From Escherichia phage muut: a DNA stretch of 64,000 nucleotides. The notes beneath the pieces are model-generated. The model did no database searches. It worked only from the letters and a program-made list of their open reading frames with translations, and had not been told where the DNA came from. A program made the position numbers and the translations under genes. Below, piece after piece: positions 3,204 to 44,397 of this stretch (its first letter is position 1; every line of letters begins with the position of its first letter). The DNA lies in the sequence record NC_052657.1. The stretch is one strand, 5' to 3'.

Positions 3204-3401
3204 ATGATGCTAGATCAACTGATCAATGCTCCTCGCGTAACAGTAAGTCCAAAAACATTTGCATCACTTTTAGAAGATGCTAGAGAGGTTTATAACTTTA
3301 CTGAAGAAGAGCTTCCTGTTCCTGTTAAAAAAGGTTCCAGATGGTTGTTTTATGAAGGTATTATTTTTACTGAAGGGAATAATTGGAAGGAGACTAAATG
3401 A
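3204..3401 (+). CDS. hypothetical protein (65 aa)
   Basis: ATG preceded by AAGGAGG; ORF-track 3111 start overlaps previous gene. Confidence 0.5.
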   Translation: MMLDQLINAPRVTVSPKTFASLLEDAREVYNFTEEELPVPVKKGSRWLFYEGIIFTEGNNWKETK

Positions 3402-4387
3402 AATACTTAGTAACAGGTGGTTTAGGCTTTATTGGAAGTGCGGTAGTTCGTTTCCTGGCTAAAAACACTAAGAATGATATTTACGTTATAGATAAATGGG
3501 GTTACGCTTCAGACCCTAGAAATTTATCAGAAACACCTAATGTAAAGTTTTGTCGTGTTGACTTGACAAATGCTCAGTTAACTGCTAAGATTGTGGCAGA
3601 TGTTAATCCAGATTATATAATGCATCTTGCAGCAGAAAGTCACGTAGATAATTCAATAGCATCACCGAGTGTTTTTATAAATTCAAATATTGTTGGAACA
3701 TTTAATCTTCTAGAAGCTGTTCGTTTAATGGGAGATAAATCAAATCTTAAAATGTTTCATCATATTTCAACAGATGAAGTGTATGGTGATCTGGAAGAAG
3801 GGGATTATCCGTTTACAGAACAGAATCCTTATAAGCCAAGTAGTCCATATGCTGCATCTAAGGCAGCAAGCGATCATTTGGTAAGAGCGTGGCATCGTAC
3901 TTATGGTATTCCGACAGTTATAACAAATTGTTCAAATAATTTTGGAGCGTATCATCATCCAGAAAAACTAATACCTAAAACGATAACAAATATTTTGATG
4001 CATAAACCAATCCCTGTTTATGGCAATGGTCTTCAAGTAAGAGATTGGTTATACGTTGACGATCACGCAGAAGCATTACACCTAGTAGTAACTAAAGGCA
4101 AATCTGGAGAAACATATAATATTGGGAGCAGAAACCCTAGAACTAATATTGATGTAATCTATATGATTTGTGATTATATGGATGCGGTGTATCCATCTGA
4201 AACAGATGCTTGTAGCCTCATTGAGATGGTTACAGATAGGCCTGGGCATGATTTAAGATATGAAGTGAATCCTTATAAGATTGAAAAGGAATTAGGGTGG
4301 AAAGCTAAAGGCACATTTGAAGAAAAACTTTATTCAACCATTGATTGGTATGTAGATAACAAAGAGTGGTGGGAAAATAAAGTTTAA
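3398..4387 (+). CDS. rmlB: dTDP-glucose 4,6-dehydratase
   Basis: 329 aa; N-terminal GGLGFIGS Rossmann motif, YAASK catalytic YxxxK. Confidence 0.9.
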
Positions 4388-32580: not shown

Positions 32581-33107
32581 TTGCATATTTTCTATACTAT
32601 AAAACGCACTAAAAATCAAGATAATTCTGATTTATTGCGCTTTTAAGAAAGTAGGCTCAACAAATAGGCTATAACTATGCTCAACAAATAACAATAATAG
32701 TATGAAAAATCATTTATTCAGATATAAATAATTTTGCGCAATAGTAGTAATATTTTTCTTGACAAGAAAGATTTCTTTGTGTTCACATAGCGCCCCCTGG
32801 AAGGTGGCGCATTATGATCATCAATGTCATTATTCACCATGTTTATTATTGCATAGCTTATTATTTAGCTTATATTATAGCCAATGTTCTAAACACTAGC
32901 TAATAATAACGCACCGCAACAATGTAAGGGATACAATATACCATGTATATTGTTGCGCTTGCAATTGTTGCAAGCTACATAAGCACAAATAATAACTATC
33001 GGTGATGGTTATTATGTGGGGTGTGTAGTTGCGTTATTATTAGCCGCCTATGTGTCCGGCATAGGCTGCTAATGATACGCTTGCGAATTATATTTCTTGT
33101 TATAGTT

Positions 33108-33175
33108 ATTGTATGAAATGATTACCACATGAAATGGTTACTGTATGCAATGATTACTGTATGAAATGATTAGTT
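33108..33175. repeat. four tandem ~16-bp direct repeats (iteron-like)
   Basis: GTATGAAATGATTAC / CATGAAATGGTTAC / GTATGCAATGATTAC / GTATGAAATGATTAG. Confidence 0.55.
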
Positions 33176-33189
33176 AGGTAATAAATAGG

Positions 33190-33470
33190 AAGGTAAAGGT
33201 TAGATCATAAATAGATAGGATATGAATTATTTAGTAATGTTACTAACGATTTAATAGTTACTTTGTGCAATAATTCGATAGATTATAGTTATAGTTTTAA
33301 AGGTTAGATAGATTATATTTAGCTTAGTAATGATTTATATTAGTTATTGTTGTTTAATATAAGGTTATCAATGAGATAGTAACAGTAAGTTATAAATAAA
33401 GGTTAGATAATTAGTTTTAATTTAGTTAGATAACTTATTATTTTATAGGTTAGATGGTCATAAGTTAAGA
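33190..33470. repeat. dispersed AAAGGTTAGAT repeats (4-5 copies)
   Basis: Copies near 33196, 33297, 33408, 33434, 33446 in AT-rich context. Confidence 0.45.
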
Positions 33471-33545
33471 ATGATTATCATTATTGCATTATGCAGCTTA
33501 TTGCATAAATAATCAGCTATAAATAAGAATGATTATCATTTAAGA
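33465..33545. repeat. two Fur-box-like palindromes
   Basis: AGAATGATTATCATTATTG and AAATAAGAATGATTATCAT; second is near-identical to 43383-43405. Confidence 0.45.
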
Positions 33546-33733
33546 GGAAAGACAAGAAAAAGGCTGTTTTTGCCAGATAGTTGCATGAAGAAATTAAAAA
33601 TAAGCGGTCTAAAACACGTTGTAAGCGCCTTATGATCTTCATGGTATGGTTGTTCATCTGCTCCTTGATTAGCTCGATACCGCGATCTATTCACTTTTTT
33701 CGGTGAACGTTTTTGATAGGTAAAAGCTATCAT
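33536..33733 (-). CDS. hypothetical basic protein (65 aa), doubtful
   Basis: ORF at edge of non-coding region, poor RBS. Confidence 0.25.
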   Translation of the reverse strand: MIAFTYQKRSPKKVNRSRYRANQGADEQPYHEDHKALTTCFRPLIFNFFMQLSGKNSLFLVFPLK

Positions 33734-33744
33734 CTTTATTTAGG

Positions 33745-33771
33745 TAAAAAGAAAGGGCGCAATAAGCGCCC
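33745..33771 (-). terminator. rho-independent terminator
   Basis: GGGCGC-TTATT-GCGCCC then TTTCTTTTT on minus strand. Confidence 0.55.
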
Positions 33772-33787
33772 TTGTTTGAAATGTTAT

Positions 33788-34171
33788 TTACTGATAAGCA
33801 GGATCGTTTGTTATATCAATCCAATGAGCTAAATTAATTTTATTTTTTGCTTTCATTTTCTCGATCAAACGTTCGGCTAATGTCTCGGAACGAATATAAA
33901 CATAATCGCTAAAATCTTGCCCCGTTTCTTCGTCGATCATTTCCCTATATTCAACCTTGCCGATAAACGCATGATTCAGCGCATAAGTTTTACCCGTGTA
34001 CCAGTTGTGTAAATGAATCTCGCATTTATAATCGTCGCTATAACCTTCGGTTGTTCTAACTTCAACCAAGTCACCTTTAAACACTGATAAGCACCACATA
34101 GGATCATGATCTACAGCGCCGTTAAAATCTTTACCGTTTACAGTCGCTGCCAGGTTGATGATATTGCTCAT
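33788..34171 (-). CDS. hypothetical protein (127 aa)
   Basis: AGGAatcacc RBS. Confidence 0.5.
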   Translation of the reverse strand: MSNIINLAATVNGKDFNGAVDHDPMWCLSVFKGDLVEVRTTEGYSDDYKCEIHLHNWYTGKTYALNHAFIGKVEYREMIDEETGQDFSDYVYIRSETLAERLIEKMKAKNKINLAHWIDITNDPAYQ

Positions 34172-34246
34172 GGTGATTCCTCGTTTACCGTTTAAAATTG
34201 TTTGCCCTACACGATAACTATAAATTAACAGAGGCTATAAAGCAAG

Positions 34247-34477
34247 TTATTTTTCATAGAATTTTTCTACTGTGATATTCTTCCCAGTGGGATTAGCTAC
34301 TTTCAAAATTTTATCATGTACTGGACGCCCAAAAGAATAAGATCCGTATACAGTAAACCAATAATCGCCGTCAGGCTGTACTATTACCGCCGCATATGGT
34401 ACGCCTTTTTCGTTATTGCTGACAGAATAGATCACATTGCCGTTCAGAGCCACAGCGCGTTTAATTTGTTCGATCAT
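34247..34477 (-). CDS. hypothetical protein (76 aa)
   Basis: ATG with AGGA RBS downstream of hairpin; ORF-track N-terminus translates the hairpin (GGKWFPA). Confidence 0.5.
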   Translation of the reverse strand: MIEQIKRAVALNGNVIYSVSNNEKGVPYAAVIVQPDGDYWFTVYGSYSFGRPVHDKILKVANPTGKNITVEKFYEK

Positions 34478-34496
34478 GATATGATTCCTATATTGA

Positions 34497-34555
34497 GCGG
34501 GAAACCACTTCCCGCCTACGTGATACATCTTAGTATAAGGGCGATCCGGTGTCAA
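34497..34555 (-). promoter_or_regulatory. promoter plus stem-loop cassette
   Basis: TTGACA-17-TAAGAT then GCGGGAAACCACTTCCCGC hairpin. Confidence 0.55.
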
Positions 34556-34904
34556 TAGGTGAGATTGTAAAGATTTGATAGTTTATTTCTTTAATGTTTT
34601 GTTGTTTGATAGGTGGAAGCTATCAATATATAATAAGATCGTCCGGTGATTATCTTCCCCTGCTCCCAGGTGCCGCCCGTTCCATAATAATAATCAAAAG
34701 CAGGATAAAAGGCAAGATAAAAAGCAAATTATTTCCTATGTGCTTTAAACGCTCTAAATAGTTTTATAACAGCTTTTTCATCCTGGCAAGGTGATTAGTC
34801 ATTGTTACCTTGTTTAAGCGGTTATAATCGGTTTTAGGCTGTTTTACGCCACCTTTTACGTTTATTCTTTACGTGTTACTTCCATCGTGAAAAAAGAATA
34901 CAAA

Positions 34905-34934
34905 AAAGGGCGCTTAGTGCGCCCCTTTCTTTTA
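34905..34934. terminator. rho-independent terminator (bidirectional)
   Basis: GGGCGC-TTAGT-GCGCCC flanked by A-run and T-run. Confidence 0.5.
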
Positions 34935-34941
34935 CCGTGTA

Positions 34942-35331
34942 TTAATATTCGTTATAATACATTGCTAACTTTTCATCAAAAGCCGATTGACGATCTGCAT
35001 ACTCCCAAAACATTTCCTGATCCTGTTGTTCGTCATCGTCCATCATATTAAATTGCGCAACCTCCTGGTAAGTGATCGCCATATTATAACGATAGGTGAT
35101 CTCTTCTGCGATGTTTTCCGGTAAAGATGATTCTACACTGTCTAACAGCATATTTAACATCATTTCAGCCGCTTTTTCATCATTATCAAAGCAGTAAGCA
35201 GACCATGCCGCATGATGTTTATTTTTCATCTTTGCAATCAAGCCGTTGACTAAAAAAGGCGCTACGTTGTTAACGATACCCTGTAAAGATTGAAATTTTT
35301 CAACGTTAGAAACAGAAACCAGGTTGCGCAT
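34942..35331 (-). CDS. hypothetical acidic protein (129 aa)
   Basis: ATG downstream of hairpin; ORF-track start lies in hairpin loop. Confidence 0.5.
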   Translation of the reverse strand: MRNLVSVSNVEKFQSLQGIVNNVAPFLVNGLIAKMKNKHHAAWSAYCFDNDEKAAEMMLNMLLDSVESSLPENIAEEITYRYNMAITYQEVAQFNMMDDDEQQDQEMFWEYADRQSAFDEKLAMYYNEY

Positions 35332-35354
35332 AGTATTTACCTTTTTGATTACCT

Positions 35355-35413
35355 GGCGGGAAACCATTTCCCGCCTACGTGGTAAATAGTACCATATTGG
35401 GGATCGGTGTCAA
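35355..35413 (-). promoter_or_regulatory. promoter plus stem-loop cassette
   Basis: TTGACA-16-TACTAT then GGCGGGAAATGGTTTCCCGCC. Confidence 0.55.
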
Positions 35414-35419
35414 TACTTT

Positions 35420-35806
35420 TTATTCAATATAAATCAAATTATCTTCACCAATGTAAGCATGCACCGATGGCATTAATTTAGCTGCATTTGTTAGGCGGTT
35501 GGCGGTGTTAGTAGTGTATATTTCAGGGCGATCCCAAAAGCCTACGCCGTGACCGTTACGGGTGAAATGTAAGTCATTCCCGATCTGGTTTGCTGTTGCG
35601 CCGTCGCTCATTGCCTCAGAGATAGCAGCATCATTGGCATCACAATAAGCCGCTACGTCATGAATGATCCGCTGATGGGCTTGATCTGAAAAATCATAAT
35701 CGTCTAAGTTATCAATAAAATTACCTTCATGATCCCTAGCTGATTCAGCAAAAATAAAGGCTTCTTTATAACCGTTGATGATTTCAATAATGATTTCTGT
35801 TTTCAT
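35420..35806 (-). CDS. hypothetical protein (128 aa)
   Basis: ATGA overlap with upstream gene. Confidence 0.5.
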   Translation of the reverse strand: MKTEIIIEIINGYKEAFIFAESARDHEGNFIDNLDDYDFSDQAHQRIIHDVAAYCDANDAAISEAMSDGATANQIGNDLHFTRNGHGVGFWDRPEIYTTNTANRLTNAAKLMPSVHAYIGEDNLIYIE

Positions 35807-36018
35807 GCTGTACGCTCGACAATAATAATGGTTTGCGGTATCTCGTTTTCTACTACTAACAAGGCTTTTTTCTGTGTGATAGATATTTTAACACGTTGTA
35901 AAGTAGCGGTAAAATCTTTCATTTCATTATGCGCGGATTTAGTGCAATGCCAGATCTCAGGCTTACCTATTTGCAAGCCGCGTAAAAATTCTGTTTTACC
36001 TGTCTTATTCGTGATCAT
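35803..36018 (-). CDS. hypothetical protein (71 aa)
   Basis: ATG with AAGGTG RBS. Confidence 0.45.
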   Translation of the reverse strand: MITNKTGKTEFLRGLQIGKPEIWHCTKSAHNEMKDFTATLQRVKISITQKKALLVVENEIPQTIIIVERTA

Positions 36019-36028
36019 TTGATTCACC

Positions 36029-36133
36029 TTATCCAATACCGTGGGAAGATAGGATCATGTTAGCCATAGTTGCAACCAATCCAACCGACAACGCCAGGCC
36101 AACTATTACAACCGTGAAAATTTTCTCTAACAT
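36029..36133 (-). CDS. small hydrophobic peptide (34 aa)
   Basis: GAGGG RBS; own promoter/hairpin upstream; single TM-like segment. Confidence 0.4.
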   Translation of the reverse strand: MLEKIFTVVIVGLALSVGLVATMANMILSSHGIG

Positions 36134-36151
36134 GATTCTACCCTCATTAAT

Positions 36152-36213
36152 GGGCGTTGCCTTATTGCCCCGCCCTATGTCGTACACTTTACCAGATAAC
36201 CGCGTATTGTCAA
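36152..36213 (-). promoter_or_regulatory. promoter plus stem-loop cassette
   Basis: TTGACA-16-TAAAGT then GGGCG...CGCCC hairpin. Confidence 0.5.
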
Positions 36214-36214
36214 A

Positions 36215-36409
36215 CTATTTTTTATAAGGGATCAGTAAACTTCTTGCTACCGCTTCACGTAAACCTTCCCTTTTTATCAGGTCTATTGTTGCAGGGTGGC
36301 AAGTAAAAGCCTTTGACCATTTTTGATCACCTGGTTTACGGGCGAAAATGTAAACTTCTCCGTCGATTTCATCCCAACGAGTATTGCTTGTTAGTTTTTT
36401 AAGCGCCAT
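36215..36409 (-). CDS. hypothetical protein (64 aa)
   Basis: ATG downstream of hairpin. Confidence 0.5.
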   Translation of the reverse strand: MALKKLTSNTRWDEIDGEVYIFARKPGDQKWSKAFTCHPATIDLIKREGLREAVARSLLIPYKK

Positions 36410-36432
36410 GCTGATTTCTCTTTTAGTTGTGA

Positions 36433-36488
36433 GCGGCACTATTGCCGCCCTACGAAATACATTCTACCCGATTTATAATTGTTGTCAA
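36433..36488 (-). promoter_or_regulatory. promoter plus stem-loop cassette
   Basis: TTGACA-16-TAGAAT then GCGGCA-ATAG-TGCCGC hairpin. Confidence 0.55.
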
Positions 36489-36489
36489 A

Positions 36490-36759
36490 CTATTTTTTCA
36501 AGCTCGACCAGTCAAAACACGGGGCGATCTCGTTAAAACTTGTACCCTGTAAAGCACATAATTTTTTAGCAATAGCCGCCGTAACCTGGCGTTGTACGCG
36601 CGGATCTGCTACTGATTGGAGAAAATAGGCGGTTTTATATGTGATCATGCTTTCGCCTGTTTCCTTGTTAACGTGGTGCACGGTTTTAGCCTTATCATCT
36701 TTTACCAGGGTGTAACCGGATTCGATGGCCTTGATTGCAACGTCCAAAGATATTTTCAT
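36490..36759 (-). CDS. hypothetical protein (89 aa)
   Basis: AAGAGG RBS. Confidence 0.5.
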   Translation of the reverse strand: MKISLDVAIKAIESGYTLVKDDKAKTVHHVNKETGESMITYKTAYFLQSVADPRVQRQVTAAIAKKLCALQGTSFNEIAPCFDWSSLKK

Positions 36760-36778
36760 GATTTACCTCTTTATTGAC

Positions 36779-36799
36779 GGCGGGGAATACTCCCCCGCC
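36779..36799 (-). promoter_or_regulatory. intercistronic stem-loop (no promoter)
   Basis: GGCGGGGGAGTATTCCCCGCC between upstream stop and RBS. Confidence 0.45.
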
Positions 36800-36806
36800 T
36801 TATTAA

Positions 36807-36977
36807 TTACTCTTCATCGTCGCCGTTATAGTATTCAATGCCGTTTTCATCGGTTACGGTGATGTTAACGCCACCAATAGCAACACGATCACGGGCAAAC
36901 GTCATGGCTTCATTTAAATCTTCAGACCAAAAAATATTGTGACCTTTGCGCGATACATAAAACATAGTTGGGATCAT
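36807..36977 (-). CDS. hypothetical protein (56 aa)
   Basis: ATG downstream of hairpin. Confidence 0.45.
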   Translation of the reverse strand: MIPTMFYVSRKGHNIFWSEDLNEAMTFARDRVAIGGVNITVTDENGIEYYNGDDEE

Positions 36978-37000
36978 GATTTGTTTCTCTTCTGTTATGA

Positions 37001-37057
37001 GCGGCACTATTGCCGCCCTATGTGATAAACTTTACTACGTTGTTTGCCTAGTGTCAA
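37001..37057 (-). promoter_or_regulatory. promoter plus stem-loop cassette
   Basis: TTGACA-17-TAAAGT then GCGGCA-ATAG-TGCCGC. Confidence 0.55.
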
Positions 37058-37058
37058 A

Positions 37059-37343
37059 TTATTTTTTAATGTTTTGCCCTACAAAATTAATCACTTCCTT
37101 AAGCTGTTTCTCAGTCATGATCGTGCCTGGCAATTCTTCTTTGATTTCTTCCGGTAGATAGATATTACCGCGCCAGGTTAATAAACAACCGTTTTGATCT
37201 TCGCAGATAGAATAAGAGAAGATCCACTCATTATCATTCTCAAGCTCCCAAAAGCACAAAAAATCTTCTTTCCCCAGGTTTTCAACGGTTAAACATAAGC
37301 CGCGACGTGCTGCATAGTTGGAAAGTGCTTTTGTGATCTTCAT
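37059..37343 (-). CDS. hypothetical protein (94 aa)
   Basis: AAGAGA RBS. Confidence 0.5.
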   Translation of the reverse strand: MKITKALSNYAARRGLCLTVENLGKEDFLCFWELENDNEWIFSYSICEDQNGCLLTWRGNIYLPEEIKEELPGTIMTEKQLKEVINFVGQNIKK

Positions 37344-37363
37344 AGCTTATCTCTTCTTTTAAG

Positions 37364-37425
37364 GCGGGGAAACCATTTCCCCGCTCTATGAGATACAATA
37401 TACTACCCGTTCGGTGTGCTGTCAA
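37364..37425 (-). promoter_or_regulatory. promoter plus stem-loop cassette
   Basis: TTGACA-17-TATATT then GCGGGGAAATGGTTTCCCCGC. Confidence 0.55.
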
Positions 37426-37749
37426 TCAATAATCTTCAATATTTTCTACATTGACAAAAGCATGTTTATTTTCTAAGTTTTCGCCGTACCATTGCCCCAT
37501 GTTGATTTCTGCGGTGCGCAACCAGGACATGCCGCGCTCTATCTTTTTACTTGCAATCTCGATCCGGCTTTTGCATAGTGCTTTCGCTTGCAATGTAAAA
37601 ACACTATTGCCCTGTAATGCTTCCAGGTCATCATGTGCAAGGCGATACTCTTTAAAGCCTGATTCTATCATTTCAATCGCATCAAGGAAACGAGCGCGAT
37701 GATAGAAAAAATCAGAGTTATCCAAATAAACACCGATCACAGATTTCAT
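37426..37749 (-). CDS. hypothetical protein (107 aa)
   Basis: ATG with AAGGG RBS 60 nt inside ORF-track ORF. Confidence 0.5.
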   Translation of the reverse strand: MKSVIGVYLDNSDFFYHRARFLDAIEMIESGFKEYRLAHDDLEALQGNSVFTLQAKALCKSRIEIASKKIERGMSWLRTAEINMGQWYGENLENKHAFVNVENIEDY

Positions 37750-37759
37750 AATTTTACCC

Positions 37760-37820
37760 TTTTGTTTGCGGCCTTTGCCGTTTTCAAGATATAGTTTAAA
37801 GCATAACAAAAAATTGTCAA
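37760..37820 (-). promoter_or_regulatory. promoter with short stem-loop
   Basis: TTGACA-16-TAAACT; CGGC-AAAG-GCCG hairpin. Confidence 0.4.
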
Positions 37821-37849
37821 GCCTTTAAAGCGTACAACTATAAAACCTA

Positions 37850-37969
37850 TTAAAACACAATGCATAACAACATGGCTATAGTAGCAATACAACATAAAGC
37901 CATGCTTGTTTTCCTTCCTTCCTCGTATGCTGGATTTATTACGCTATATTGTACGGGAATAATTTTCAT
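37850..37969 (-). CDS. small hydrophobic peptide (39 aa)
   Basis: AAGGA RBS; Cys-rich hydrophobic C-terminus. Confidence 0.3.
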   Translation of the reverse strand: MKIIPVQYSVINPAYEEGRKTSMALCCIATIAMLLCIVF

Positions 37970-38078
37970 GCTGTTTCCTTAATGTCTTAAAACGTGGTTT
38001 ACAATAGAAACAAGTATACAGAAGAAAAAAGATCCTGACAATAAGATCCCGAAAAATAAATGTAAATAGGGCATGGTT

Positions 38079-38381
38079 TTACTCCTTAAAAAAATCATTG
38101 ACAATTAAACTGATAACGCCCAGCACCAGATCACCAGGTAGCGCCGCGCTTTCGTTGTTGCTTGTTTGCACTTCCTCACTAGTACCAGCATGATAGATTG
38201 CATGGTAAGCAATAGTACAATAACCTTTCGTTATTTCTTTAAGATTAATGATTAGCACGTTATTTGTTTCATCTTGAAACAATTTAGCGGTGATAGTATT
38301 GTTTTCTTTTACACTATCGACTTTTATTGATGGATCATTTACACCAGAAAAAAGAAAAAACGTTTTAGCTATGCCGTTCAT
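38079..38381 (-). CDS. hypothetical protein (100 aa)
   Basis: GGAG RBS. Confidence 0.5.
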   Translation of the reverse strand: MNGIAKTFFLFSGVNDPSIKVDSVKENNTITAKLFQDETNNVLIINLKEITKGYCTIAYHAIYHAGTSEEVQTSNNESAALPGDLVLGVISLIVNDFFKE

Positions 38382-38428
38382 GTAGTTCTCCTTTGTTGTG
38401 TGTATCTTATAACGTGCTTTCTATGTTG

Positions 38429-38830
38429 TCAATCTTTTATCTCGGTGCATTTTGCTAGGGTATACGTTGCAAGTGCTGACACTAGTTTTTCATTGCTACG
38501 ATCTGCGGCTGTACTGTGTACTTTTTGAATACTTTTTAACCACGGCGTAAAATTTTGAGTAGTCAGCACACTGGTAATAATTTCACATGGCACATCTTCA
38601 TTTAAGCCGTTAACAATAGACTTATCTATTTTTGCCGTTAGTTGTGTAACAGCACCATAAGCGATCATGTGTGAATCCTCCATGATTTCATCGGGGATCG
38701 CATTATTAATAAGCATGACGTTTTCCATTGCATCAACGGCGCTTAATTCTGCTACTGTGGAGGATATCGCCGCGCTAGATGTTCCAACCATGCCAAAATA
38801 GATTAAACCAGCGATCAATAAGTTTTTCAT
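38429..38830 (-). CDS. secreted/periplasmic protein with signal peptide (133 aa)
   Basis: ATG with GAGG RBS; N-terminal MKNLLIAGLIYFGMVGTSSA signal-like segment. Confidence 0.5.
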   Translation of the reverse strand: MKNLLIAGLIYFGMVGTSSAAISSTVAELSAVDAMENVMLINNAIPDEIMEDSHMIAYGAVTQLTAKIDKSIVNGLNEDVPCEIITSVLTTQNFTPWLKSIQKVHSTAADRSNEKLVSALATYTLAKCTEIKD

Positions 38831-38838
38831 TTCTTGCC

Positions 38839-39021
38839 TCATATATGTTTTATTGAGATTATATTGTCACTATATACAACGTTTTTCAACGTGTCAATAA
38901 AAATCTTATTGCCTTCAATCCCCAGGATCACGCCGCTAGTTATGAAGCCATATTGATCACGATATCGGGCGCATAACCTTTGCCCCTGGGCTAGTGCCTT
39001 GCTTATTTCGTCTAATTTCAT
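38839..39021 (-). CDS. hypothetical protein (60 aa)
   Basis: GGAG RBS. Confidence 0.45.
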   Translation of the reverse strand: MKLDEISKALAQGQRLCARYRDQYGFITSGVILGIEGNKIFIDTLKNVVYSDNIISIKHI

Positions 39022-39115
39022 TTTTAAAGCTCCTGTAAAGCTGTCTAACGTGGTTTATAGGCTTATCCTGGCGTTACCATTGCCTATGGGTAACAAGCCT
39101 CTATATAAGCTAAAA

Positions 39116-39139
39116 GGGCGCTTATTGCGCCCTTTTTTG
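39116..39139. terminator. rho-independent terminator (bidirectional)
   Basis: GGGCG-CTTATTG-CGCCC with T-run. Confidence 0.5.
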
Positions 39140-39277
39140 TTATTCGTTCCAGTATCTTTTTGTGCTGCGATCTCTTTTTGTTTTGTTCCGCTTATCGCCT
39201 TTTTTGGTGATCTCTTCGTTCCAATTTTTACGCGCCTTGCTGCGGTTGAATTTTTCGATCTGCTGTGATGCGTTCAT
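39140..39277 (-). CDS. small basic protein (45 aa)
   Basis: AAGGA RBS; Lys/Arg rich; plus-strand ORFs here look spurious. Confidence 0.4.
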   Translation of the reverse strand: MNASQQIEKFNRSKARKNWNEEITKKGDKRNKTKRDRSTKRYWNE

Positions 39278-39292
39278 GTTTTTTCCTTTTAA

Positions 39293-39652
39293 TCACGCCA
39301 CGTTATGCTGTTTTGCCAGGGTTACGATCATGCTTGCAATATATAACCAATAATTTTCCCGCTCACGGGTAACGGTTGTTTCTCTGCTTGTTTCTTTTAT
39401 GTACTTCCATTCAATTAACAAGTGATCGATCTCGTTATAATCAAAAGCAATATTGATTTCTGACGGTAAACCTTGTAACCAGGAGGCTATCGCCTTGATC
39501 ATGTTATGATTGTAACGTTTTTGATTATCGGGATACCAGTATTCAGAATTAAAACGGCGCATCAGTTCGGTGATTTTTTCTTTTTCGGTTGTAGTACCAT
39601 CAAAAGAAATAGCCGACAAAATGTAAGTTTTAATTGCTTTTGCTGATTTCAT
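39293..39652 (-). CDS. hypothetical protein (119 aa)
   Basis: AAAGAG RBS after hairpin. Confidence 0.5.
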   Translation of the reverse strand: MKSAKAIKTYILSAISFDGTTTEKEKITELMRRFNSEYWYPDNQKRYNHNMIKAIASWLQGLPSEINIAFDYNEIDHLLIEWKYIKETSRETTVTRERENYWLYIASMIVTLAKQHNVA

Positions 39653-39673
39653 AATCTTATCTCTTTATTGATG

Positions 39674-39732
39674 GCGGGAAACCATTTCCCGCCGTTGTTG
39701 TTACTTTACTTATAAATGATGCTACTGTCAAG
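39674..39732 (-). promoter_or_regulatory. promoter plus stem-loop cassette
   Basis: TTGACA-18-TAAAGT then GGCGGGAAATGGTTTCCCGCC. Confidence 0.55.
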
Positions 39733-39738
39733 CGAATA

Positions 39739-39909
39739 TTATTTATTTTTTAACGTTAATGTTCCCAGCTTATCAGCGTGACGCAGACCAGGAAAGATCC
39801 ATTTTCCTGATTCATCTTTCACCGGGGCTTTAAGCGTAGCGCCCAGGTTGGCGGCGTTAACTTTACGTGCAACGTTGCGAGCGGCTTCACGGGTGGCGAA
39901 AGTGATCAT
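39739..39909 (-). CDS. small protein (56 aa)
   Basis: GAGGA RBS after hairpin; below ORF-track cut-off. Confidence 0.45.
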   Translation of the reverse strand: MITFATREAARNVARKVNAANLGATLKAPVKDESGKWIFPGLRHADKLGTLTLKNK

Positions 39910-39932
39910 GATGTTTCCTCTTCTCTTTGTTA

Positions 39933-39993
39933 GGCGGTGGGCTATTCCACCGCCTTAATGAATATAGTTTACTGATTTTAGTTATCTTGTCAA
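39933..39993 (-). promoter_or_regulatory. promoter plus stem-loop cassette
   Basis: TTGACA-16-TAAACT then GGCGGTGG-AATAGC-CCACCGCC. Confidence 0.55.
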
Positions 39994-40001
39994 GATTATT
40001 T

Positions 40002-40229
40002 TTAGTTTAATCCATCCAGGCACAACAAGCGATCAACGTTTAGATCGGTTAGGCTAATCGTTGGCACCTGGTAGGATTCGATGTACTCAACGCTCGACCA
40101 TTGCCCAAAGTTAGCGACCGCCCAGCTATTCAAGGAGGAGTGAAGATCATCCCCTTTCTTCTCTGTGATAACTGCTACTACCTGAGAGATTCCAACCGTA
40201 CCGGATACGCGAACAATAACGATAGCCAT
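40002..40229 (-). CDS. hypothetical protein (75 aa)
   Basis: AAAGG RBS after hairpin. Confidence 0.5.
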   Translation of the reverse strand: MAIVIVRVSGTVGISQVVAVITEKKGDDLHSSLNSWAVANFGQWSSVEYIESYQVPTISLTDLNVDRLLCLDGLN

Positions 40230-40251
40230 AATGATAACCTTTCTTTGATTT

Positions 40252-40312
40252 GGCGGGAAACCATTTCCCCGCCTTATGTGATAAACTATACCAGATTAAA
40301 AAACGTTGTCAA
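40252..40312 (-). promoter_or_regulatory. promoter plus stem-loop cassette
   Basis: TTGACA-16-TATAGT then GGCGGGGAAATGGTTTCCCGCC. Confidence 0.55.
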
Positions 40313-40321
40313 CTGCTTTTA

Positions 40322-40561
40322 TTACATTCCTACCATAGCGGCGCGGATACTGGTTTTACTGAATTTATAGCCATCTGGCGTAGTATTTTCGCCCATTTCG
40401 TTAAGTAGTGACATCATTTCACGCGCGGCGTTATCTTTATTGTTGTTCACGGCTATAAATTCTTTTGCCATATTATAAAAACCTGGATCGTTATTAATCC
40501 AAAGGCTTACATTCCAATGAGTTTTATTTTTGTGACCGTTGTACATTTTAGATTTAGCCAT
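40322..40561 (-). CDS. hypothetical protein (79 aa)
   Basis: AAGAG RBS after hairpin. Confidence 0.5.
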   Translation of the reverse strand: MAKSKMYNGHKNKTHWNVSLWINNDPGFYNMAKEFIAVNNNKDNAAREMMSLLNEMGENTTPDGYKFSKTSIRAAMVGM

Positions 40562-40585
40562 GATGTTAATCTCTTTTTCAGTGAG

Positions 40586-40644
40586 GCGGGAACTATTCCC
40601 GCTCTCGATGTAAACTATTATACAGTACTAAGATACTTTGTCAA
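40586..40644 (-). promoter_or_regulatory. promoter plus stem-loop cassette
   Basis: TTGACA-16-TATAAT then GCGGGAATAGTTCCCGC. Confidence 0.6.
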
Positions 40645-40647
40645 TAC

Positions 40648-40923
40648 TTAAGTATTGTAAATGTCGTGAATAGTGATAAAGTTTTTACGACCGTAAACAT
40701 GTAAATCAGTATCAATGTAGTGCTTATCAAGTACATCCTCGACGCTTAACGCGGTGTCGTGAATATCTTCGTAGAATTGAGGATCTACAATCTTACTTAA
40801 ATCATCCGGCGTTAACTTATCATTAAGCCATTGAACCGCCTGGATATCTGCTTCACGTTTCCAGTCTTCCAGGTTAGTAGTCAGTACTTGTTCGATTTCG
40901 TTAGCTGTCAGTAGAATCCGCAT
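40648..40923 (-). CDS. hypothetical protein (91 aa)
   Basis: GGAA RBS. Confidence 0.5.
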   Translation of the reverse strand: MRILLTANEIEQVLTTNLEDWKREADIQAVQWLNDKLTPDDLSKIVDPQFYEDIHDTALSVEDVLDKHYIDTDLHVYGRKNFITIHDIYNT

Positions 40924-40956
40924 TTTAATGTTTCCTTATCAGTGGTTGATGTAAGT

Positions 40957-40984
40957 ATTATACTCGTTTACTTTCTATTGTCAA
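40957..40984 (-). promoter_or_regulatory. sigma70-like promoter
   Basis: TTGACA-16-TATAAT. Confidence 0.55.
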
Positions 40985-40994
40985 ACTATTTTAT

Positions 40995-41100
40995 CAGGGG
41001 GAGTTTTTCGTGTGCCTTACTCCTGGGCTACTTAACGGGGTGTTACTTCGTTCCCCCGTCCTGATATGAAACATTTTACGCTTTTTATTCGTGCTGTCAA
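40995..41100 (-). promoter_or_regulatory. second promoter followed by double stem-loop
   Basis: TTGACA-16-TAAAAT, then ACGGGG...CCCCGT and GGAGT...ACTCC hairpins. Confidence 0.45.
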
Positions 41101-41106
41101 TGCTTT

Positions 41107-41472
41107 TTATAAATCTTTTTTACGTTTAACATCGCTTGCATGGCTGTATACAGCGATCCCATTGTCACGGCAAAAACGGGAAAGATACGCGCCGCGTGAA
41201 AACTCTTTACCTTCCAGGTTGATAACCTTGCTAAACTCTTCTAGGGCAACGGTATCAAAATGATCCCCGTATCCATATTGGAACGGCACGTTTACCACTT
41301 CGATCAGTTTACCGCCGATCTCAACGTCAACCATCAAAGAGAAATAAGTATTACCATAAGACTTTTGAAACCAGCGACGGGCGCTAATATGCACCGCTTC
41401 AATGCTGGATAGTTCAATTTTAGCCGTGTTAGCCAGGGTAGCATAAGCGGAAACATTAATATTTTTAGCCAT
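41107..41472 (-). CDS. hypothetical protein (121 aa)
   Basis: AGGA RBS. Confidence 0.5.
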   Translation of the reverse strand: MAKNINVSAYATLANTAKIELSSIEAVHISARRWFQKSYGNTYFSLMVDVEIGGKLIEVVNVPFQYGYGDHFDTVALEEFSKVINLEGKEFSRGAYLSRFCRDNGIAVYSHASDVKRKKDL

Positions 41473-41509
41473 GATTTTATTCCTTAGTAACGCTTCAATT
41501 TATATAAGC

Positions 41510-41537
41510 ATTATAGCTTACTGATTTCAGTTGTCAA
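41510..41537 (-). promoter_or_regulatory. sigma70-like promoter
   Basis: TTGACA-16-TATAAT. Confidence 0.55.
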
Positions 41538-41558
41538 GTGATTTTTTATTTCACCTTT

Positions 41559-41615
41559 GAGGGGGTTGCCCCGCTCTATGTGGTACATATTACGGGGCTT
41601 GTTTGCATATGTCAA
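41559..41615 (-). promoter_or_regulatory. promoter plus stem-loop cassette (tandem with 41510-41537)
   Basis: TTGACA-17-TAATAT then GAGCGGGGCAACCCCCTC. Confidence 0.45.
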
Positions 41616-41618
41616 GCC

Positions 41619-42173
41619 TTACACAATGCAATTTTCATAATTTTTTAAGGCTTGTATTTTTTCCTCTTCTGTCGGCCTATATGGCTGGATCTCTTCCTCT
41701 TCCAGGGTGGGCATGATTTCTTCCTCTTCCTCCTGGTCGTCCTGGTCTTCCTCTTGCGCTATGGTAACAAGTTTATTGATCTTCTCCTGGGCTTTAATCA
41801 ATTTTGCATCTAGCACCATTTTAGCGGTGTTGTATACAGTCCATGCCATGCGCTTTTCTTCGTATGCCTTATCTAGTGCGGCTAATTTAGCGGGATACTC
41901 TTCTAACACCTTAAAAGCCGGATCAATGCTATATAAGGGATTATTTTTAGCATCATCGCTTGGATCTGCGGCGCTTGCAATGTCAGCGTTACCATTTGCC
42001 AGCCAACCAGGGCGAACGGATCGCGCCTTTGTGTTGCCGTTGCTCTTTGCCGCTCGATTTCCTATCTGCTCCCCGCTATACCCTACCATGTGATCGATCA
42101 TTTCATCTGGTATTATGCGCGGATCATTAGCGTCATGCTTTACCCATGACTGGATCACATATTCACGCCCCAT
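41619..42173 (-). CDS. hypothetical protein with acidic C-terminus (184 aa)
   Basis: ORF overlapping upstream gene end. Confidence 0.5.
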   Translation of the reverse strand: MGREYVIQSWVKHDANDPRIIPDEMIDHMVGYSGEQIGNRAAKSNGNTKARSVRPGWLANGNADIASAADPSDDAKNNPLYSIDPAFKVLEEYPAKLAALDKAYEEKRMAWTVYNTAKMVLDAKLIKAQEKINKLVTIAQEEDQDDQEEEEEIMPTLEEEEIQPYRPTEEEKIQALKNYENCIV

Positions 42174-42435
42174 GTTCGTTCGCCTCTTCTGTTAGTAGTT
42201 TACATACCTTAAACATGCTTGCCGCATCTTTTGACGGTAGCCAGCCTATCCGATACACTCCAGGATCTGGATTAGTTATATCAGTTAGTTGCGCGTTGCG
42301 ATGATTAAAAATAGTGTAACCGCCGCCAGCACGGGGATAAACATTATCTTTAAACCTGATAGCGTATCTCGCCAGGTCGAACGTTGTAGCATGTTCAAAA
42401 GCGATCACATTATCAAAAACTTTTAGAAAAAACAA
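42163..42435 (-). CDS. hypothetical protein (90 aa)
   Basis: TTG start with GGGGAGG RBS. Confidence 0.45.
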   Translation of the reverse strand: MFFLKVFDNVIAFEHATTFDLARYAIRFKDNVYPRAGGGYTIFNHRNAQLTDITNPDPGVYRIGWLPSKDAASMFKVCKLLTEEANEHGA

Positions 42436-42437
42436 GA

Positions 42438-42584
42438 TTATCCTCCCCAGCGTTTAAAGCCCGTTGCACGGTTGTTTTTTAGCTCTCGTTTTAGTCTCTT
42501 GCAACGGTTTACAAGTGCAAACCGTGCCGGAGTCGTAACAGTAGCGCCGTTTTTGGTGTGAATACTCATTACATATTGTTTCAT
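42438..42584 (-). CDS. small basic protein (48 aa)
   Basis: ATG after hairpin; stop overlaps RBS of next gene. Confidence 0.4.
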   Translation of the reverse strand: MKQYVMSIHTKNGATVTTPARFALVNRCKRLKRELKNNRATGFKRWGG

Positions 42585-42604
42585 AAAGTTTTATCCTATG
42601 TAAG

Positions 42605-42656
42605 CGGGAACTATTCCCGCTTTAAGATAGCTTATCAGGTTTTAGTGCAACGTCAA
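42605..42656 (-). promoter_or_regulatory. promoter plus stem-loop cassette
   Basis: TTGACG-16-TAAGCT then GCGGGAATAGTTCCCGC. Confidence 0.5.
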
Positions 42657-42690
42657 CCGTTTTTTTAATCTTTTTTCATTTCTTTTTTGC

Positions 42691-42744
42691 TTGCTATCTA
42701 TAAAGGAAACGGCTATTATCTTTCTACCGCGCCAACCAGGGCGC
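42691..42744 (+). promoter_or_regulatory. divergent promoter plus stem-loop (plus strand)
   Basis: TTGCTA-17-TATTAT then GCGCC-AACCAG-GGCGC hairpin. Confidence 0.45.
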
Positions 42745-42766
42745 ACATCAAAGAAAGGGCGATACC

Positions 42767-43033
42767 ATGACAAATACCCCTTTACATCTCATGCACTCAT
42801 TGGGCTGGCAAGGCGGCACGGTGCACCAGGTAGCAAGCGCAACGGGCTTAAAGGTTGAAACCGTTCTCAACCTGGGCGATCATAAGGTGGAAGAAATAGA
42901 TCATTTTGATACGTTCGCAAATGGTTATCTATGGGCTTGCAGTGGCGGCGGGGAAAGCAAGATCCCGCCAGGGGCGCGGGGCGACATGTATTTTTGGTTA
43001 GGTGTCCTATCCTGGCAAGAAAACAAAAAATAA
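42767..43033 (+). CDS. hypothetical protein (88 aa)
   Basis: AAGGG RBS; lone plus-strand gene between minus blocks. Confidence 0.5.
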   Translation: MTNTPLHLMHSLGWQGGTVHQVASATGLKVETVLNLGDHKVEEIDHFDTFANGYLWACSGGGESKIPPGARGDMYFWLGVLSWQENKK

Positions 43034-43035
43034 TC

Positions 43036-43064
43036 TTGACAAGCCCAGGGATCGGGCTTATACT
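43036..43064 (+). promoter_or_regulatory. sigma70-like promoter
   Basis: TTGACA-17-TATACT. Confidence 0.5.
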
Positions 43065-43070
43065 GTTTTA

Positions 43071-43170
43071 CATACAGAAGAGGAAGCGCCACCCCCACGG
43101 CGTAAAGGCGGGGCTAACATACCAGGGCACTACTGGTTGGAAGGTTGATCGCCGGTAGCTCGTCTAAAAT
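43071..43170 (+). ncRNA. candidate small structured RNA
   Basis: GC-rich hairpin-rich ~100 nt after the promoter, with no ORF and no RBS. Confidence 0.25.
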
Positions 43171-43314
43171 AAATTTGTAAAGAAATGTAAAGATAAAAAT
43201 AATCGCTTGCTTTTGTTGTTGGTTATGCTATTCTTATTGTATGGCGAGGGGATACGGGAGCGCGAGACAAACACCACCCCTGCGCGTTATTCTCTAAATG
43301 AGAAAATTCTTATT

Positions 43315-43405
43315 TGGTAATGATTCTCATTCTCTTACTGAGAATGATTATCACTTACATAATTAAATGATAATGATTCTCATTTACAAATGAGAATGAT
43401 TATCA
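43315..43405. repeat. cluster of four Fur-box-like palindromes
   Basis: TAATGATTCTCATT, GAGAATGATTATCAC, GATAATGATTCTCAT, GAGAATGATTATCAT. Confidence 0.45.
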
Positions 43406-43430
43406 TCCGCACACCCATAAAAACACGAAA

Positions 43431-43631
43431 TTGAACTTTTCATTTTTGATTTTTCTACGGAAAAAGGCAAAAAAACTTTAAATAAACTGGGGAATTTTTA
43501 AAAAATTGAAGTTTTCATTTTCAAAATCTGGACAGAAATACATACAAAAACTTTAAATAATTTTGACCAAACTTGAACTTTTCATTTTCAAAATTTGTAG
43601 CCAAAAATCTGTAAAAACTTTAAATAATTTT
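43431..43631. repeat. three tandem ~62-67 bp direct repeats
   Basis: Each unit: TTGAA(C/G)TTTTCATTTT(C/T)(A/G)A(A/T)(A/T)T ... AAAAACTTTAAATAA. Confidence 0.55.
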
Positions 43632-43845
43632 ATCCTTTTTATAAAAATGATTTTACTGTTCTGTTATAAATAGTAGTTAAGAGATAATGTGTCTTTTAAA
43701 AGCCAGATAGCATAGTCCAACAAACAAATTAAATAATTTATTAACAGAGTACAGAATAATATTTACTCTGGATATATTATTCAGAGGGTGGATTTCCGTA
43801 CATGAAACCCACACCCCTTTTATAAAAATAAAAATTTTCAAAATA

Positions 43846-44397
43846 TCAGGAAATATCAGATTGTGTTTTTAGATAAACAGCAAGGTCTGTATGCCATTTT
43901 CCTAAAAGATTTTGTCCTTTCCAACAATCCTTGTTTTCAACATTACGATCCCACATCCCCATTTTGATACCATAAATAGAATCATAAGGGCTTGCCTCTA
44001 CGAACTCCTTATCTGCGTAAGCAATAAGTTTATTTTTGAGATCTTCATTTTGTGTGTATTTAAGATACAAACCACGTTCGACAATCTTCTCCCGTAAAGA
44101 AGTCCAGGTATCTTCATCATAATCCTTAACTAATCTACCTAGTCGCTTATAATATGCTTGTTCTTTTTCTCCTGTATATCTTAGATCTCCGGTTAAAATA
44201 GAAGATGCAATATTGTAATCATAAAACAAACATGCTTTTCTCCACATCATATATTGTTCCACACAAGTAAATTCAACATAACTTGTAATAGAATTATTAT
44301 ACTTGGGAGCTAAAGGTTCAATAAAAGATGATAGATACCAGTTGCTAAATTCATCTTTTGCCGAAAAGAAGAACACATACTTATCAGTAATCCGCAT
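43846..44397 (-). CDS. NADAR (YbiA-like) domain protein
   Basis: FSNW, EQYMMWRKACLF, KYTQNEDLKNKL...EASPYDSIYGIKMG, GQNLLGK segments align with the YbiA/NADAR fold. Confidence 0.7.
   Translation of the reverse strand: MRITDKYVFFFSAKDEFSNWYLSSFIEPLAPKYNNSITSYVEFTCVEQYMMWRKACLFYDYNIASSILTGDLRYTGEKEQAYYKRLGRLVKDYDEDTWTSLREKIVERGLYLKYTQNEDLKNKLIAYADKEFVEASPYDSIYGIKMGMWDRNVENKDCWKGQNLLGKWHTDLAVYLKTQSDIS

Follow-up and report, generated by a model that had tools for sequence, protein, structure and literature searches.

Tandem early promoters as probable cassette joints in Escherichia phage muut, and a candidate RNA motif in common with jumbo phages and T7

The three strong promoters A1-A3 of phage T7 are usually read as a means of obtaining more transcription or of capturing the host polymerase early, and a hairpin near the 5' end of an Escherichia coli mRNA can protect it against 5'-end-dependent decay. 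Promoter-early stem-loops (PeSLs) have been described in the T4-type phages RB49/phi1, PST/T4 and nt-1/KVP40 (Arbiol et al. 2010, PMC2839356; Comeau et al. 2014, PMC4122927). In phage HK022, a two-stem RNA of about 73 nt, putL, starts at +2/+3 of an early host-polymerase promoter and makes RNA polymerase resistant to pausing and termination without a protein of its own (PMC9378689). Here we analyse a stretch of 64,000 nt of Escherichia phage muut (record NC_052657.1; the window, to whose numbering positions refer unless another genome is named), in which two neighbouring early genes, 41107..41472 and 40648..40923, are each preceded by a pair of near-consensus promoters with hairpins between them. 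Our best explanation, to which as a whole we give a probability of about 70%, is that the promoter pairs are joints between gene cassettes and that the downstream pair is a module consisting of a promoter (P1), a structured RNA and a second promoter (P2).

A first-pass annotation of this DNA had reported two consensus promoters before each of the two genes, and both pairs are there (the features placed between 40322 and 42173 are all on the (-) strand). In the 183-nt gap upstream of 40648..40923 lie P41100, which is P1 (41073..41100; TTGACA-16-TAAAAT, 11/12 hexamer matches), and P40984, which is P2 (40957..40984; TTGACA-16-TATAAT, 12/12). The 146-nt gap upstream of 41107..41472 holds P41615 (41587..41615; TTGACA-17-TAATAT, 10/12) and P41537 (41510..41537; TTGACA-16-TATAAT, 12/12), so that all four sites score 10-12 out of 12. 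Hairpins are also present between the members of each pair, as had been proposed: one short G+C hairpin plus a weak A/U-rich one between P41615 and P41537, and two hairpins held in a third helix between P41100 and P40984. P41100 is the resident promoter of phi92-type phages; P40984, which has no stem-loop, is identical in the jumbo phage vB_Ec-M-J.

The RNA element between P1 and P2 (40992..41066) was delimited by folding, by its match to a covariance model, by its homologues and by covariation, and forms a predicted three-way junction. In the folded transcript, from 41066 to 40992, a third helix encloses two hairpins (-22.6 kcal/mol, z -2.7). The closing helix, UAUCAGG/CCUGAUA, pairs 41066-41060 with 40998-40992 and begins a few bases from the predicted 5' end; hairpin 1 is ACGGGG/CCCCGU, and a conserved linker, UAAGUAG (41034-41028), leads to hairpin 2, GGAGU/ACUCC (41023-41019 with 41004-41000), with the conserved loop AAGGCACACGAAAA. 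At the heart of this element, which takes up about 80 nt between the promoters, is a motif at 41034-41000, UAAGUAG plus a hairpin with the loop AAGNCNNACGAAA. A covariance model built from nine distinct copies of the window type matches 40985-41067 with 96 bits, and none of the Rfam 15 covariance models, run on 33000-44000, matched the element at E<=1.

Copies of this type recur well outside muut. A stretch of approximately 100 nt, reaching from P1's -10 to P2's -35, matches 40 phage records over at least 80% of its length. About 36 of these are jumbo phages, in which it occurs at 2-4 places each; the others are outra, EmilieFrey and the Vequintavirinae A73 and W70. The order promoter, element, 'aaaatagt', TTGACA-16-TATAAT is constant in PBECO4, 121Q, E9.1, vB_Ec-M-J, A73 and five metagenome stretches, and the gene behind it varies (a 612-nt, 201-nt or 276-nt gene, gp232 or gp233); Asteriusvirus genomes carry two copies each, before different genes. 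In jumbo phages we also noted, upstream of P1-element-P2, a further promoter-like site with a conserved non-coding stretch (PBECO4 1620-1860 (-), vB_Ec-M-J 890-1010, Munch 3290-3480) showing long-range pairing, e.g. TAGCCCACC...GGTGGCTA; this stretch may be another non-coding RNA, and there would then be three consecutive promoters.

With the covariance model we found weak matches in the Salmonella jumbo phage Munch and, as a third copy, in an Asteriusvirus-like contig. These variants keep UAAGUAG and the loop AAGUCNNACGAAA and have every helix replaced: GGAGU/ACUCC of hairpin 2 becomes CCAGU/ACUGG, AUCAGG/CCUGAU of the closing helix gives way to CGGC/GCCG or GACG/CGUC, and hairpin 1, where present, reads GGGAUG/CAUUCC. 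The third copy (OERM01000014.1, 5665-5728 (-)) lacks hairpin 1 and the second promoter and has a Shine-Dalgarno (SD) sequence and ATG about 50 nt downstream, which makes it the sole copy seen as a plain 5' untranslated region (5'UTR) and an exception to the two-promoter arrangement. Further variants, in a 366-kb IMG/VR phage, in RaK2 and in the Erwinia jumbo phage Hallingskeid, stand behind a promoter and have a second promoter 35-70 nt downstream.

A BLAST search with the Munch copy led to the left end of about 170 T7/T3-like genomes. In T3 the motif occupies 533-570, between the annotated promoters A1 (-10 at 467-472) and A2 (-35 at 572-577). The T7 sequence, at nt ~535-595, reads CCGGGGUCAACCGG-A-UAAGUAG-ACAG-CCUG-AUAAGUCGCACGAAAAA-CAGG-UA-UUGACA, the final hexamer being the -35 of A2, and a 68-nt T7 query gave one match in each of 485 T7-like phage records. 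P40984 corresponds in position to A2, and 10 of the first 13 bases of its spacer (ATAGAAAGTAAACGAG) match the spacer of T7 A3 in an ungapped comparison by eye. A pattern scan of IMG/VR returned 34 stretches, which together with the other loci gave 28 distinct true variants; two stretches from the IMG/VR and metagenome pattern scans were set aside as chance matches in other sequence. Defined as UAAGUAG followed by a 4-6-bp hairpin with the loop (AU)AAGNCNNACGAAAR, the motif is present in the window as well, and it has a promoter before it and a co-oriented promoter after it in the window, Asteriusvirus, A73, Munch, RaK2, Hallingskeid and T3/T7.

The variants allow the structure to be examined by covariation. 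In T7-like phages hairpins 1 and 2 are accompanied by a pseudoknot, in which the loop of the first hairpin pairs with the 3' flank; this flank is usually the A2 -35. Across 17 T7-like variants 97.1% of the cells are paired, with compensatory changes in 10 of the 14 pairs, including all five pseudoknot pairs (variants GUCAA/UUGAC, GAUUAG/CUAAUC, GUCAUC/GAUGAC and GUCGGU/ACCGAC). None of 500 shuffles reached the observed values, and sliding the partners by 1-3 columns left 15-37% paired. Hairpin 2, compared across all lineages including the window, is 91.6% paired, with compensatory changes in 4 of 5 pairs, alongside invariant columns. One T7-like pair is GC in nine variants and GU in seven, which fits the transcribed strand only. 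We consider it very probable that a conserved structured RNA family exists. The leading 1300 nt of T7 and of T3 gave no Rfam match at E<=5, and in the literature we found no description of the T7 motif, a full-text search for its sequence giving uses of T7 promoters only. The UAAGUAG/ACGAAA element is a candidate for a new Rfam family.

Several other identities for the element were considered and given up. ARAGORN found no tRNA genes in the whole window, which removed a tRNA-like element, and the lack of any BLAST match in 5,426 E. coli genomes removed a copy of a host or prophage small RNA. That the element travels with the 276-nt gene was rejected on the grounds that only one promoter precedes the distant homologues of this gene in RaK2, Munch and UPEC06. 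An 'empty cassette' made of a stem-loop, an SD-like AGGAG and a stop-like TGATAA had been raised since CCCAGGAGTAAG is an SD region elsewhere in 121Q; it was dropped as the main explanation owing to the covariation in other lineages.

The evidence for cassette exchange comes from the relatives of muut, which by BLAST belongs to the phi92 group (Justusliebigvirus, Stephanstirmvirinae; 92-96% identity). Over 40300-42300 the best single-record coverage by any relative is at most 84%. We compared the interval from gp230 to gp232 in the window with that of phi92, outra, SD2, A150 and inny, and found six arrangements. Phi92 has gp231, a single promoter with a stem-loop, and gp232; its promoter is a hybrid into which three have collapsed, with the -35 and spacer of P41100, a -10 and first transcribed bases that resemble P40984, and the stem-loop of P40644. 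Outra supplies the comparison with a relative lacking one of the flanking genes that the first-pass annotation had called for: behind its gp231, P1, two hairpins and P2 with a stem-loop lie directly before gp232, i.e. tandem promoters that lack the 276-nt gene. In SD2 and inny, P1 is followed by an intact stem-loop and then by a different, 183-nt gene, A150 has yet another gene at that site, and outra, inny and A150 carry an extra 180-nt gene behind a P41537-type promoter and 5'UTR. Local alignments place the breakpoints at 39362, 39685, 39950-80, 40320, 40622-61, 40948, 41049-63, 41466-82 and 42649-64, and by our reading seven of the nine lie within promoter, stem-loop or 5'UTR sequence.

Read in the direction of transcription, the muut sequence changes its closest relative twice. 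From 41106 to 40985, covering P1 and the hairpins, it is identical to outra in 120/120 positions (56/56 aligned bases in 41106-41050), and the -35 and spacer of P41100 match phi92, SD2, A150 and outra. The following segment (40984-40604), which runs from P2 and its 5'UTR through the 276-nt gene to about +13 of the promoter after it, is identical in 381/381 positions to vB_Ec-M-J, a 378-kb jumbo Asteriusvirus. From 40603 to 40322, with the stem-loop, SD and gp232, it is identical to SD2 in 280/282. The 276-nt gene (40648..40923; from the list of open reading frames (ORFs), and phrog_14947) encodes 91 amino acids (aa), and this protein has 95-100% identity in 29 records; those listed are all jumbo phages of ~310-385 kb and, where the classification was checked, Asteriusvirus. 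No close copy (95-100%) was found in phi92-like records, and myoviruses of ~140-160 kb gave distant matches only, at 89% identity or less.

There is little doubt in our minds that this region is a recombination mosaic. Given its exactness and the residence of the 276-nt gene in jumbo phages, the simplest history is a recent transfer from a jumbo phage into an outra-like genome: an outra-like ancestor with P1-RNA-P2 would have received the 276-nt gene from an Asteriusvirus jumbo phage by a double crossover. Judging from the sequences, one exchange appears to lie in the shared 'ctgataaaatagtTTGACA' and the other, on the right, in 'tttacatcgaga' (at the boundary of ...tttacatcgaga and gcggg), and the recipient appears to have had tandem promoters before the 276-nt gene arrived. 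In vB_Ec-M-J the gene after the 276-nt gene is the same 183-nt gene that SD2 and inny carry between gp231 and gp232, and the 180-nt gene is common also to rV5-like, Phapecoctavirus and Asteriusvirus phages. Such sharing among families points to a common pool of cassettes joined by similar promoter units.

The common pool supports one half of the original proposal, which had attributed the promoter pairs to cassettes inserted next to each other by recombination, leaving promoter relics: cassettes are indeed inserted, deleted and replaced inside promoter/stem-loop units. The other half, in which the downstream pair is a mere leftover of insertion, is not supported. The module exists whole in the lineage of the donor, and other groups of phages, T7/T3 among them (A1-motif-A2), have it too; its hairpins are members of a covarying RNA family and not debris. 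The downstream pair is one instance of a conserved module and no accident of insertion.

Both pairs belong to a longer array. On the (-) strand, 34.5-41.6 kb is a run of consecutive small early genes, and nearly every one is preceded by a standard unit of an A-rich tract, TTGACA, 16-17 nt, TAnnnT, a hairpin, an SD sequence of the AAAGAG type and ATG. The G+C hairpin starts ~10-13 nt past the -10, at about +4 of the transcript (for example GGCGGGAAAUGGUUUCCCGCC). Scoring sites by hexamer matches out of 12 and taking expectations from first-order Markov simulations of 34000-42500, we counted 18 promoter-like sites of at least 10/12 on the (-) strand of this interval (expected 2.1 +/- 1.4) and 8 of at least 11/12 (expected 0.16), and behind 12 of the 18 lies a hairpin with a folding energy of -12 to -19 kcal/mol. 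Promoter activity at these sites is predicted from consensus and homology. The ordinary stem-loops of the array have 8 G-U among 242 pairs and equally stable sense and antisense folds, i.e. no strand asymmetry. No U-tract follows them on the transcribed strand and a terminator scan gave no call on that strand; a terminator role for them is doubtful. As a separate observation, the initial transcribed sequence of T7 A1 (AUCGAGAGGGACACGGCGAAUAGCCAUCCC, T7 stretch 498-535) starts like the array units (ACAUCGAGAGCGGGAAUAGUUCCCGCCUC, window 40611-40583) and also forms a 5' hairpin, and the design of promoter plus 5' hairpin seems common to phages well beyond muut.

Set against this standard unit, the upstream pair is most likely, as its sequence suggests, an orphan promoter/stem-loop/SD unit that has lost its ORF and is fused to a promoter without a stem-loop. 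P41615 starts where promoters of the array normally do, 3 nt behind the gp230 stop codon. Behind it, folding and comparison with other units show (41551..41576) a shortened hairpin, GAGCGGGGCAACCCCCUC (41576..41559), then AAAGG at the SD place and TGA, and instead of an ATG come TGAAATAAAAAATCAC and P41537, which lacks a G+C stem-loop and has a 37-nt 5'UTR to the ATG at 41472. A 44-nt stretch between the two promoters folds with -10.6 kcal/mol (z -2.1). The whole 168 nt are present in one piece, at 91-98% identity, in all 54 phi92-type records that hold them, with both hexamer pairs intact in every record, and were not found in other phage groups; the pair appears fixed throughout the genus. 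The 3' half of the hairpin occurs in four versions among six genomes, not all of which pair, and shows no consistent compensation, which would fit decay as well as a hot spot of recombination. The 180-nt gene found behind P41537 in some relatives supplied no intermediate: in 121Q and in rV5-like and Phapecoctavirus phages a single ordinary promoter unit precedes it. P41615 and P41537 probably both fire and add to the expression of gp231.

In the explanation that we prefer, each cassette would bring its own strong host-type (sigma-70) promoter, together with a ribosome-binding site and a G+C stem-loop with which the transcript begins, and the units of ~80 nt, being alike between cassettes and other large coliphages, would serve as homology patches for exchange. 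Within the downstream module, P1 would be the promoter of a small non-coding leader RNA made by host RNA polymerase in the first moments of infection, and P2 would serve the protein gene that follows. A specific partner is suggested by the invariant unpaired segments, and UAAGUAG and ACGAAA would most likely form a binding surface for a host component. By analogy with put, the transcribing RNA polymerase is our leading guess for this partner, at long odds; alternatively, the RNA may be a decoy for a host RNase, RNA-decay or defence factor, or a stabilising or processing signal. The wider proposal, that the element represents an undescribed class of immediate-early phage RNA, transcribed within seconds of infection from the first strong promoter of T7-like phages and from early arrays in jumbo and phi92-like phages, and acting on a host machine, be it by put-like modification of RNA polymerase or as an RNase or defence decoy, and that the tandem promoters make this RNA separately from the mRNA, we put forward as a tentative one, somewhat short of an even chance. 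If true, put-like modification would keep early transcription, which in T7 drives genome entry, free of pausing and Rho.

A number of observations weigh against this explanation. The nine window-type copies are too alike to show any covariation, and the signal stems from the family at large. The fold topology differs as well, a three-way junction in the window, Munch and RaK2 and a pseudoknot in T7-likes; in the former three the pairing partner of the 3' flank lies 5' of hairpin 1. The element is missing from most Justusliebigviruses, which makes it dispensable in this genus. No terminator follows the element, so its RNA would have to be released by processing or kept as the 5' part of a read-through transcript, and a discrete small RNA from P1 is, like the use of the promoters in these phages, predicted; a put-like function is an analogy. 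As to the upstream pair, none of the 54 matching records has an ORF between P41615 and P41537, which leaves its relic origin a reasonable inference and not a demonstrated one.

Among other explanations, the one that survives best is that tandem promoters raise transcription or capture host RNA polymerase early, the hairpins being generic stabilisers of mRNA 5' ends. All four sites are near consensus, in the array units a G+C hairpin begins about 4 nt into the predicted transcript, and T7 A1 transcripts likewise start with one; left unexplained are the conserved unpaired UAAGUAG and AAGNCNNACGAAA, kept where all stems have changed. It is compatible with the explanation we prefer and does not exclude it, and taken by itself we find it possible, if somewhat less probable than our tentative proposal for the RNA.

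Rather unlikely, and slightly less favoured than the preceding one, is that both double promoters are inert by-products, the older promoter and the hairpins being relics and one promoter per pair mattering. Cassette shuffling at promoters is demonstrated, and the upstream pair does resemble a unit stripped of its ORF, in which a promoter leads into a short hairpin, AAAGG and TGA and a further A-rich tract and promoter follow; the 3' half of its hairpin varies among relatives without consistent compensation. That same pair is nevertheless retained, both hexamer pairs intact, in 54/54 records, and the downstream inter-promoter RNA covaries in several phage groups that are unrelated; it invariably follows a promoter and nearly always precedes another.

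Least probable by far is that the inter-promoter element acts as DNA (an operator, a cruciform, or a recombination or homing target), which would regulate P2 given its closeness to the -35: in T7/T3 the 3' strand of the pseudoknot is the A2 -35 and a loop A-tract lies at the place of the proximal UP subsite, and the ordinary array stem-loops lack strand asymmetry (8 G-U in 242 pairs), but the distance from motif to P2 varies from 2 nt (T7) to ~65-70 nt (RaK2), compensation in 5/5 pseudoknot pairs is meaningless for duplex DNA, the frequent G-U pairs are C-A mismatches on the other strand, and in three T7-like variants the pairing is kept though the 3' strand is no -35 sequence.

The remaining features frame the two pairs. 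Upstream of the first pair lies the gp230 homologue (41619..42173, 184 aa; phi92 annotation and phrog_16605), between the pairs the gp231 homologue (41107..41472, 121 aa; phi92 annotation and phrog_6246), and downstream of the imported segment (40604..40984) the gp232 homologue (40322..40561, 79 aa; phi92 annotation), which belongs to the resident backbone; all three are in the ORF list. P40644 (40583..40644, 12/12), from the promoter scan and folding, has a standard 5' stem-loop, GAG-CGGGAAUAGUUCCCG-CCUC. Elsewhere in the array, one of its few terminator-like sites lies at 39112-39136, between the ORFs 39140..39277 and 38839..39021, where a symmetric hairpin resembling an intrinsic terminator, AAAAGGGCGC-TTATT-GCGCCCTTTT, has an A-run before it and a T-run after it and could, with these, terminate on both strands. 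At 42649-42664, the upstream end of the array, the window is short of ~0.8-1.1 kb (gp226/gp227-type cassettes) relative to other Justusliebigviruses, the flanks overlapping by ~16 nt in local alignments, which makes this another cassette deletion. SD2 in turn lacks the 360-nt gene found in the window at 39293..39652, by a deletion running from the loop of the stem-loop behind a P39731-type promoter into the 3' end of the gene (its (-) strand from ~4183 onward, corresponding to window 39363-39684); this deletion is illegitimate and has left half a stem-loop. Finally, several records named 'UNVERIFIED Campylobacter phage' (A150, A145, C3, A110a and others) are 95% identical to this coliphage group, and their host labels look doubtful.

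Compared with described systems, the array units most resemble PeSLs in build and in behaviour. Both have an A/T-rich tract, a near-consensus sigma-70 promoter, a G/C stem-loop (polyG/polyC in PeSLs), an SD sequence and ATG; both are repeated between small ORFans in a hyperplastic region; and in both the breakpoints of indels and replacements fall inside the elements, with degraded or 'half' elements beside indels. They differ in that the array units occur in phages that are not of the T4 type (Stephanstirmvirinae, Vequintavirinae and Asteriusvirus), and in that their stem-loop is always downstream of the -10, in the transcript, an arrangement of only one of the five PeSL subclasses; the stem-loops of phi1 are mostly between the hexamers or overlap the -10, and that of PST precedes the promoter. 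The array stem-loops also lack a U-tract on the transcribed strand, and exchange in the array crosses phage families. We regard the units as analogues of PeSLs and not as members. We found no description in the literature of promoter/stem-loop cassettes in rV5-, phi92- or 121Q-type phages; the rV5 and CBB genome papers list promoters and not these cassettes. Promoter/stem-loop linkers that express and shuffle early genes, described only for T4-types, would now extend to three more groups of large coliphages. The cassettes cross families, as the 381 bp identical between a phi92-like phage of the 148-kb class and a 378-kb jumbo phage illustrate, and such transfer bears on the spread of 'ORFan' genes for host takeover and anti-defence.

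The put RNAs of HK022, likened here from their published description (~70-75 nt, two stem-loops, putL from the promoter start), resemble the muut element in size and position; the analogy is functional only, with no evident relationship in sequence or structure. Antitermination by put involves the beta' zinc-binding domain of RNA polymerase and a downstream pause site. The closest relative of the tandem-promoter module is the A1-A2-A3 series of T7/T3. Both have strong, co-oriented host-polymerase promoters in tandem ~110-130 bp apart, a first transcript that starts with a G+C hairpin, and, between the first and second promoters, UAAGUAG followed by a hairpin with the loop AAGUCNNACGAAAAA. In T7-likes the loop of hairpin 1 forms a pseudoknot with the 3' flank, whereas in muut a three-way junction is closed by the 5' end of the transcript; the T7 motif stands at the left end of the genome before the first gene, and that of muut in the middle of an array and absent from most relatives. 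T7's textbook tandem early promoters enclose, by this comparison, a covarying RNA structure common to unrelated giant phages. In phage genomes that lack annotation the motif could serve to mark immediate-early regions, and its link to T7 opens a test of the old question of why several strong promoters stand in a row and what their leader RNAs do.

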